This document shows positions 57,702 to 58,478 of a DNA stretch of 64,000 bases, piece after piece. Position 1 is the first letter of the stretch. Each line of letters begins with the position of its first letter. The position numbers were made by a program, and so were the translations under genes. The notes under the pieces are model-generated. The model was not told where the DNA came from. It was given only the letters and a program-made list of their open reading frames with translations, and made no database searches. This DNA is from an archaeon (GTDB taxonomy: Archaea; Nanobdellota; Nanobdellia; Pacearchaeales; UBA284): contig CP070794.1 of assembly GCA_020343435.1 (NCBI GenBank), positions 239,558 through 303,557 of the forward strand, written 5' to 3'.

Positions 57702-58478
57702 TTATTTAATTAATTTTCTTTTAGTAATTATCAAAACTATTGTAACAACAATCATTACCACTAAACAAATCCATTGCGGCAATACTAATCCTAAAAAGAA
57801 TTCTTTAGATACATAATATCTTAGGAAATCTATAAAGAACCTATTCAAACAATAATATAATAAGAAAAATAAAAATATTGTTCCTTTAATATTTAAAATA
57901 CTTCTAGGGTTATTCTCTTTATCTCTTTTATGAGTTAAATGTAATAAAACAAAGAATACAATTAAATTAGCAATTAGTAAATATAACTGAGTAGGATGTC
58001 TTGAAACACCATTAACAGTTATTGCCCAAGGTAAATTAGTTTCTAGACCATAACAACACCAATTCAAGAAACAACCAATTCTTCCTAATGCTAATCCTAA
58101 TGCGACATAAGGAGCAAATGAGTCTAATAATTCTCTAAAATTTATTTTATGTTTTCTAATATAAAGCCAAACAAATAAAACAGATAAGAATCCTCCAAAA
58201 CTAGATGATCCTCCTTCACTAAACGCAAAGATTCTAGTTAAATCCTGAGCAAAATAATTAAAATTAATAAAAACATAGAGTAGTCTTGTACCAATGATTA
58301 TCCCTAATAAAAGCAAAACTGCAATATTAAAGAAATGTTTTTCCCCAATTTTTTTAGTAACTGGTTTATATGCTAAGAATAATGCAACTAAAAACGATGC
58401 AACAAAAATAACTCCCCAAGTATAAAAATTGATTCCTGCAATACTGAACAGAACAGAAACTGGGTGATGATCAATCAT
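57702..58478 (-). CDS. lgt: Bacterial-type prolipoprotein diacylglyceryl transferase
   Basis: LALGRIGCFLNWCCYGLETNLPWAI and SRHPTQLYLLIANL match the Lgt GR-x-G-(N/C)F-x-N-x-x-x-YG and HPTQLYE signatures. Polytopic membrane protein. Confidence 0.85.
   Translation of the reverse strand: MIDHHPVSVLFSIAGINFYTWGVIFVASFLVALFLAYKPVTKKIGEKHFFNIAVLLLLGIIIGTRLLYVFINFNYFAQDLTRIFAFSEGGSSSFGGFLSVLFVWLYIRKHKINFRELLDSFAPYVALGLALGRIGCFLNWCCYGLETNLPWAITVNGVSRHPTQLYLLIANLIVFFVLLHLTHKRDKENNPRSILNIKGTIFLFFLLYYCLNRFFIDFLRYYVSKEFFLGLVLPQWICLVVMIVVTIVLIITKRKLIK

Follow-up and report, generated by a model that had tools for sequence, protein, structure and literature searches.

Among described systems, the present locus compares first with the prolipoprotein diacylglyceryl transferase (Lgt) of Escherichia coli (5AZB/5AZC), a seven-transmembrane enzyme that has the signal peptidase LspA as its partner and the lipobox cysteine as its target. 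According to specialist papers, archaea have neither Lgt nor LspA. Haloferax lipidates lipobox proteins without Lgt, and in Haloferax volcanii AliA and AliB (arCOG02177/02178) are needed for the maturation of these proteins (PMC12462473). Two conserved arginines of AliA/AliB have been proposed as a parallel to those of Lgt, and the two proteins are not detectable Lgt homologues (HHpred probability 29%) (PMC12462473). Unlike AliA/AliB, the protein described below is a bona fide Lgt, encoded in an archaeal genome. No report that connects Lgt or signal peptidase II with DPANN, Woesearchaeota or Pacearchaeota came up in a full-text literature search; what is already known is the Lgt annotation of these proteins in public databases.

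We analysed a window of 64,000 nucleotides (contig CP070794.1, positions 239,558 to 303,557) from an archaeon of the Pacearchaeales, whose genome, G000, is a single 648-kb scaffold with 14 gaps of 100 N. The whole of the evidence is best explained, with a probability of roughly 78%, by a native, working C-type Lgt that lipidates a small conserved set of substrates. In the mechanism that we propose, a transferase native to the Pacearchaeota (DPANN) lineage would, after Sec export, attach a glyceryl-lipid by a thioether to the invariant cysteine that ends the signal peptide of a few surface proteins. In this lineage LspA would then cut off the signal peptide, and the N-acylation step (Lnt or Lit) would be absent. 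Independently of the N-type, the ancestor of most Pacearchaeales would have received the C-type Lgt from bacteria, and the lipid donor of this enzyme would be a scavenged, presumably host-derived phosphatidylglycerol-like lipid, either ether-linked and archaeal or ester-linked and bacterial.

Sequence, fold and conserved residues of Lgt

The gene and the element upstream of it lie in the window as follows:

57702..58478, minus strand: lgt, 258 aa with an ATG start, prolipoprotein diacylglyceryl transferase homologue of the Cys-rich 'C-type'
58499..58508, minus strand: TTATTTAAAT, a TATA-box-like element read from the sequence, 21-30 nt upstream of the lgt ATG

The ORF carries both Lgt motifs, LGRIGCFLNWCCYG at residues 131-144 and RHPTQLY at residues 160-166. 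With the Pfam profile LGT (PF01790) it scores 171.5 bits (cutoff 24.9) over positions 2-239 of the 240 in the profile, and with the NCBI equivalog TIGR00544 118.6 bits, only 0.3 bits below the trusted cutoff of 118.9; its Pacearchaeota orthologues carry the NCBI name Lgt. E. coli Lgt (5AZB) is matched by phmmer with E=6e-18. An AF2 model built with 32 homologues as input (pLDDT 93.7, pTM 0.88) adopts the seven-transmembrane Lgt fold and has 5AZB as its sole significant match in the PDB (E=1.6e-11, TM 0.79). The original prediction had named the protein Lgt from its two motifs, and Pfam, the 5AZB comparison and the AF2 model all agree. The Pacearchaeal protein and E. coli Lgt differ in that they are only about 23% identical, in that the periplasmic head domain of the Pacearchaeal protein is reduced to a short hairpin, and in their hosts, which here is an archaeon without lipid synthesis. 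The position of TTATTTAAAT would suit an archaeal promoter whose mRNA has no leader or almost none, a weak indication in a genome of only 31% G+C.

In the alignment with E. coli Lgt, R133, R213 and R220 of the ORF correspond to R143, R239 and R246, and C136, C141 and C142 fall on N146, E151 and L152. The Pacearchaeal proteins retain D129, G154 and Y235 (E. coli numbering) and the HP(S/T)QLY motif, with E243 changed to Asp. The position of N146 is Cys in all of them, E151/L152 are Cys-Cys or Asp-Asp, H103 is Phe, Tyr or Trp (Phe in the ORF) and Y26 is Trp. The ORF therefore keeps only G154 of the canonical signature, while N146, E151 and H103, reported from mutagenesis to be important in E. coli Lgt, are replaced. 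The catalytic residues on which the original prediction had been made to depend are thus conserved in part: the equivalents of Arg143 and Arg239, D129, G154 and Y235 are kept, while N146, E151 and H103 are not, as in a large bacterial subfamily. As many bacterial Lgts show these replacements too, the C-type residues are a subfamily trait and not a sign of decay; they exclude the canonical N-type but not the Lgt family. R133 and R213 do not vary among 32 Pacearchaeal and bacterial C-type sequences. Across the Pacearchaeal and bacterial C-type proteins G135, C136, G144, HPTQ-Y and R220 are likewise invariant, and conservation at D119 and Y209 is 90% or higher. We regard the Pacearchaeal Lgt as very probably functional.

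In three relatives (G016:C102, G019:C47 and G022:C37) the Pfam match to Lgt comes in two parts (profile positions 2-194 and 187-239) within one frame of 286-315 aa, which indicates an insertion before the last helices.

Genomic context of lgt

On either side of lgt lie two archaeal marker genes:

55538..56725, plus strand: archaeal eIF2-gamma (profile match), about 1 kb from lgt
59981..61430, plus strand: archaeal 16S rRNA, about 1.5 kb from lgt, followed by 23S rRNA from 61718

The Lgt family is otherwise bacterial, and among the control genomes it was found in 10 from bacteria and in 0 from archaea, so that a bacterial contaminant or a chimeric assembly has to be considered as the source of the gene. 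Against this, lgt sits on a 648-kb scaffold with archaeal eIF2-gamma on one side and archaeal rRNA on the other, its G+C content is that of the genome, and the Pacearchaeal clade to which it belongs is monophyletic. Its nearest homologues (45-60% identity) carry the NCBI name 'Candidatus Pacearchaeota archaeon'. Furthermore, eIF2-gamma adjoins lgt in 8 of 12 relatives' loci, these eight being independent assemblies from at least five genera. This synteny excludes contamination or chimerism and argues for vertical inheritance within the family; we regard a foreign origin of the contig as extremely improbable. The original prediction had placed a bacterial-type Lgt in an archaeal genome and had argued against mis-assembly from the flanking eIF2-gamma and rRNA genes. 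Both points are confirmed, with the conserved gene order now excluding mis-assembly.

Two orphan ORFs, at 56722-57117 on the minus strand (131 aa) and 57226-57699 on the plus strand (157 aa), separate eIF2-gamma from lgt in this genome only. Neither has a Pfam match, no homologues of them were found, and the two flanking genes lie closer together in the relatives. Two tRNA matches in the window, at 61492-61591 in the 16S-23S spacer and at 29534-29644, are 100 and 111 nt long; as both exceed the standard length of a tRNA, they probably contain introns.

Two types of Lgt in the class

The Cys-rich signature of the ORF (GRIGCF..GCC.G, YGG) also occurs in Lgts of Bacillota, Thermodesulfobacteriota, Endomicrobium, WOR-3, Omnitrophica and others. 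To our knowledge this C-type subfamily has so far remained uncharacterised. Its bacterial members share the signature substitutions and the length of about 250 aa with the Pacearchaeal proteins; they differ from them in being 32-38% identical and in that the Pacearchaeal sequences mostly have a Trp before the CC/DD pair (WCCYG or WDDYG). Wherever the motif patterns read them, the Lgts of 20 further families in the class belong to the canonical N-type (GR.GN......G in 11/20, HGG in 18/20, RHP(S/T)Q in 20/20), and the NCBI names of their relatives are Woesearchaeota or Nanoarchaeota. The N-type Lgts of Woesearchaeota and the other orders of the class are, like the Pacearchaeal one, bacterial-type, DPANN-borne, paired with LspA and named Lgt by NCBI. 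They differ in having the canonical motif (GRIGNFINGELYG, HGG, RHPSQLYE) and in occupying another branch of the tree.

A FastTree phylogeny of 263 sequences falls into three groups, namely the N-type, the Pacearchaeal clade and the bacterial C-type. In an IQ-TREE analysis of 43 sequences of known domain, the Pacearchaeal Lgts are monophyletic (100/98) and join the bacterial C-type with support of 100/99, a WOR-3 sequence being their sister (96/86). The 20 N-type archaeal Lgts stand apart with E. coli, Pasteurella, Pseudomonadales and Gemmatimonadaceae; these bacterial comparators came from a search of representatives, most of them unnamed, and from cluster names, and a large protein search with an N-type archaeal query gave archaeal matches only. 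A single archaeal Lgt clade, a group defined after the first tree had been seen, was rejected by the AU test (delta lnL 57, p=0.00046). This rejection implies that Pacearchaeales either acquired their C-type on a separate occasion or had an older copy replaced by it. The simplest reading of these trees is that bacteria supplied it independently of the N-type seen in the sister orders, and that it either displaced an earlier copy or was re-acquired after a loss. The inter-domain origin that had been proposed from the window is thus supported by the Lgt phylogeny. The LspA proteins of the order are also monophyletic (98), with support of 67-79 around the Pacearchaeal clade and an AU p value of 0.03 on a set that includes rows of unknown domain.

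An N-type Lgt was also seen on a 5-kb contig with the NCBI label 'Nitrosarchaeum sp.', which is either a mis-binned DPANN contig or an Lgt in a thaumarchaeon.

Distribution of Lgt and its partner LspA

A search of the genome for the enzymes that would follow Lgt, as suggested with the original prediction, found lspA but no lnt:

G000:C1:473210-473686, minus strand, outside the window: lspA (signal peptidase II), matching PF01252 and TIGR00077

Its scores are 96.3 bits against a cutoff of 25 for PF01252 and 82.7 against 73.95 for TIGR00077. Neither Lnt nor Lit was found in the five genomes of the order that were searched, this one included.

Both enzymes are class-wide traits and not an oddity of one genome. 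In the sample of the order and family (41 genomes), Lgt is present in 33/41 and LspA in 34/41. In the phylum sample, all of whose genomes fall in the same class, the counts are 265/301 for Lgt, among genomes mostly of 90% completeness or more, and 109/121 for LspA. The 121 genomes searched for both proteins comprise 107 with both, 7 with neither, 5 with Lgt only and 2 with LspA only, a co-occurrence whose statistics are inflated by shared ancestry, as relatives are not independent. Family f9 of the Pacearchaeales has Lgt in 0/13 genomes, and the four archaeal control genomes contain neither Lgt nor LspA. In a genome of family f4, lspA and lgt are neighbours on one strand with 80 nt between them, in an operon-like arrangement (G038:C39:8718-9856).

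The LspA of the genome under study has one anomaly. At the position of the first catalytic Asp, as taken from the S. aureus and P. aeruginosa enzymes, it has Asn110 (AAT, G000:C1:473357-473359), while the FNIAD motif is kept. An Asp occupies this position in 11/11 relatives of the order, in 4/4 of the closest database homologues and in 19/20 sequences of the class, the twentieth of which gave no match to the search pattern. Signal-peptide cleavage may therefore be impaired in this genome, or AAT may be a consensus or base-call error.

The first of these options could mean that the pathway is decaying here, with Lgt intact and LspA dead (D110N), so that prolipoproteins would be lipidated yet left uncleaved, or that the lineage is heading for a loss like that of family f8. 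Families f5, f8 and f9 have indeed lost the pathway naturally, a relic of Lgt being left in G030, and it is in G000 only that the first catalytic Asp of LspA is an Asn. However, no LspA among the 41 relatives scores higher with Pfam than this one (96 bits), which also lies above the lspA equivalog cutoff, all four substrate families described below retain their lipoboxes in this genome, and the single G-to-A change could be a consensus error. We consider decay unlikely, and in the preferred reading of a working pathway LspA would also cleave the lipidated precursors in this archaeon.

Candidate lipoprotein substrates

The genome has at least four candidate substrates: an acidic protein of 75 aa, a protein of 303 aa, a Cys-rich protein of 110 aa and a nuclease of the staphylococcal type. 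These four have orthologues in another genus, in which the cysteine is conserved despite diverged signal peptides. The first lies in the window:

2421..2648, plus strand: 75-aa acidic secreted protein with a signal peptide and the lipobox VLGAS|C

This protein, whose start overlaps the stop of the upstream gene (ATGA), had been put forward as a lipobox-bearing substrate from the window alone and proved to be real, as the lipobox cysteine is retained in 10/10 orthologues. The signal peptides of nine orthologues all end in VSG(A/T)G|C or similar, and by its sequence the protein is a putative small lipoprotein family conserved in this archaeal family. In the 303-aa protein the cysteine is invariant in 30/30 orthologues from six families, and the residue before it is G, S or A, with SGQxG|C as a frequent form. 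The homologue of staphylococcal nuclease (Pfam SNase) has [LIVF]-x-S-G|C in 14/27 orthologues.

A non-canonical lipobox, SGQ(Q/M/T/A)G|C, with a polar Gln at -3 or -2, recurs in three unrelated substrate families (including G017:C1:196669-196983). This recurrence may reflect the specificity of the C-type Lgt/LspA pair.

Lipobox proteins were also counted across whole proteomes. Scanning every ORF with a PROSITE-style lipobox pattern was abandoned because continuing transmembrane helices matched it. A strict census of signal peptides with a lipobox found 5 of 782 ORFs in the genome under study against 2 expected (P=0.05). By the same census, Lgt-positive genomes had 5 and 3 such proteins and two complete relatives lacking both Lgt and LspA had 3 and 3 (Fisher P=1.0), so that some lipobox-like proteins exist without Lgt. 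The enrichment of lipoboxes that the original prediction anticipated is accordingly weak and no different from that in Lgt-negative relatives, and the census speaks against a simple 'enrichment' claim. It missed true orthologous lipoboxes with a Q in the c-region, and for this reason tests at the level of orthologues were used instead; here the conservation of the cysteine is strong.

A second candidate from the window, AGSIGC in 59300-59821, is left unsupported, since it has its cysteine at residue 47 and a weak h-region, and no homologue was found in three complete relatives.

Natural losses of the pathway

Several lineages of the order lack the enzymes. In three genomes without Lgt and LspA, from families f5, f8 and f9, the nuclease has a plain N-terminal transmembrane anchor and no lipobox. 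The 303-aa protein, which is present in 34/41 genomes, was not found in these enzyme-lacking families among the 41. It occurs in 32 genomes with Lgt and is missing from 1, and it occurs in 2 genomes without Lgt and is missing from 6, counts in which kin are not independent. Lastly, a genome of family f8 without LspA still holds a decayed Pacearchaeal-type Lgt of 203 aa (G030:C9:12398-13009), with a deletion of about 60 residues and the loss of all three conserved arginines (R133W, R213L, R220V). The enzymes, the lipoboxes and the substrates thus vanish together, which ties Lgt to lipoprotein maturation and speaks against its recruitment for an unrelated function.

These losses bear on the possibility, raised in the original prediction, that the enzyme was recruited for another membrane function, such as some other membrane lipid transfer, while an archaeal system like AliA/AliB serves the lipobox proteins. 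Several observations point that way. Relatives lacking both Lgt and LspA still have about three good-looking lipobox proteins each, N146, E151 and H103 are replaced, and Haloferax offers a precedent for lipidation without Lgt. The replacements, however, are the same in many bacterial Lgts, and the tight co-occurrence of Lgt and LspA, the decay of Lgt where LspA was lost (G030) and the retention of the lipobox cysteine in three orthologue families, with its disappearance where the enzymes are missing, all argue against another function. Moreover, PF01889 (DUF63), which we suspect to be the AliA/B family, was found in 0/5 genomes of the order, while it is present in Haloferax, M. jannaschii and M. 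acetivorans. Altogether, a different function is disfavoured and appears improbable, and we infer that the Pacearchaeal protein carries out Lgt catalysis.

The lipid donor

The five genomes of the order that were searched, including the one under study, have no GGGP synthase, UbiA-type DGGGP synthase, CDP-archaeol synthase (CarS) or PlsC-type acyltransferase. As these genes of core lipid synthesis are missing, the core lipids must be scavenged. Two adjacent, divergent CDP-alcohol phosphatidyltransferases (G000:C1:628005-628880 and 628892-629599) are present in the genome under study and not in the four relatives. Their nearest model is archaetidylinositol-phosphate synthase, with a score below the cutoff, and they may remodel head groups on scavenged lipids. 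Across the class, 121 genomes gave no robust match to GGGP synthase, and PlsC-family acyltransferases occur in 38 of these 121 genomes, with tandem pairs in G155 and G074; among the controls they were found in bacteria only.

The bacterial-type Lgt might use host-derived archaetidylglycerol, an ether-linked lipid with sn-2,3 glycerol, and so place an archaeol anchor on the lipobox proteins, the two independent Lgt types of the class then being a mark of selection; we put this idea forward tentatively and think it rather doubtful. In the mirror alternative, which is just as conceivable, these archaea would carry bacterial-type ester lipids, possibly obtained from bacterial hosts, which the PlsC homologues in 38/121 genomes together with the lack of a robust GGGP synthase match would fit. 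In both cases the donor would be a scavenged lipid, as in the mechanism proposed above.

Implications

The new elements of this analysis are the C-type origin of Lgt in Pacearchaeales, the class-wide counts, the evidence for function from orthologues and losses, and the LspA anomaly. With Lgt and LspA in about 88-90% of the high-quality genomes of the class, and one order having a second, independently derived type of Lgt, the phyletic picture of the two enzymes is corrected and current statements in the field are contradicted. The natural loss experiments connect Lgt and LspA with particular proteins of the cell surface, among them a nuclease that is plausibly a source of food for a symbiont scavenging nucleotides. 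The findings also leave a testable question, namely which lipid a bacterial-type Lgt uses in an archaeal cell that is unable to make lipids. The identity of this donor would reveal what kind of membranes these uncultured archaea have, and perhaps also what their hosts are.
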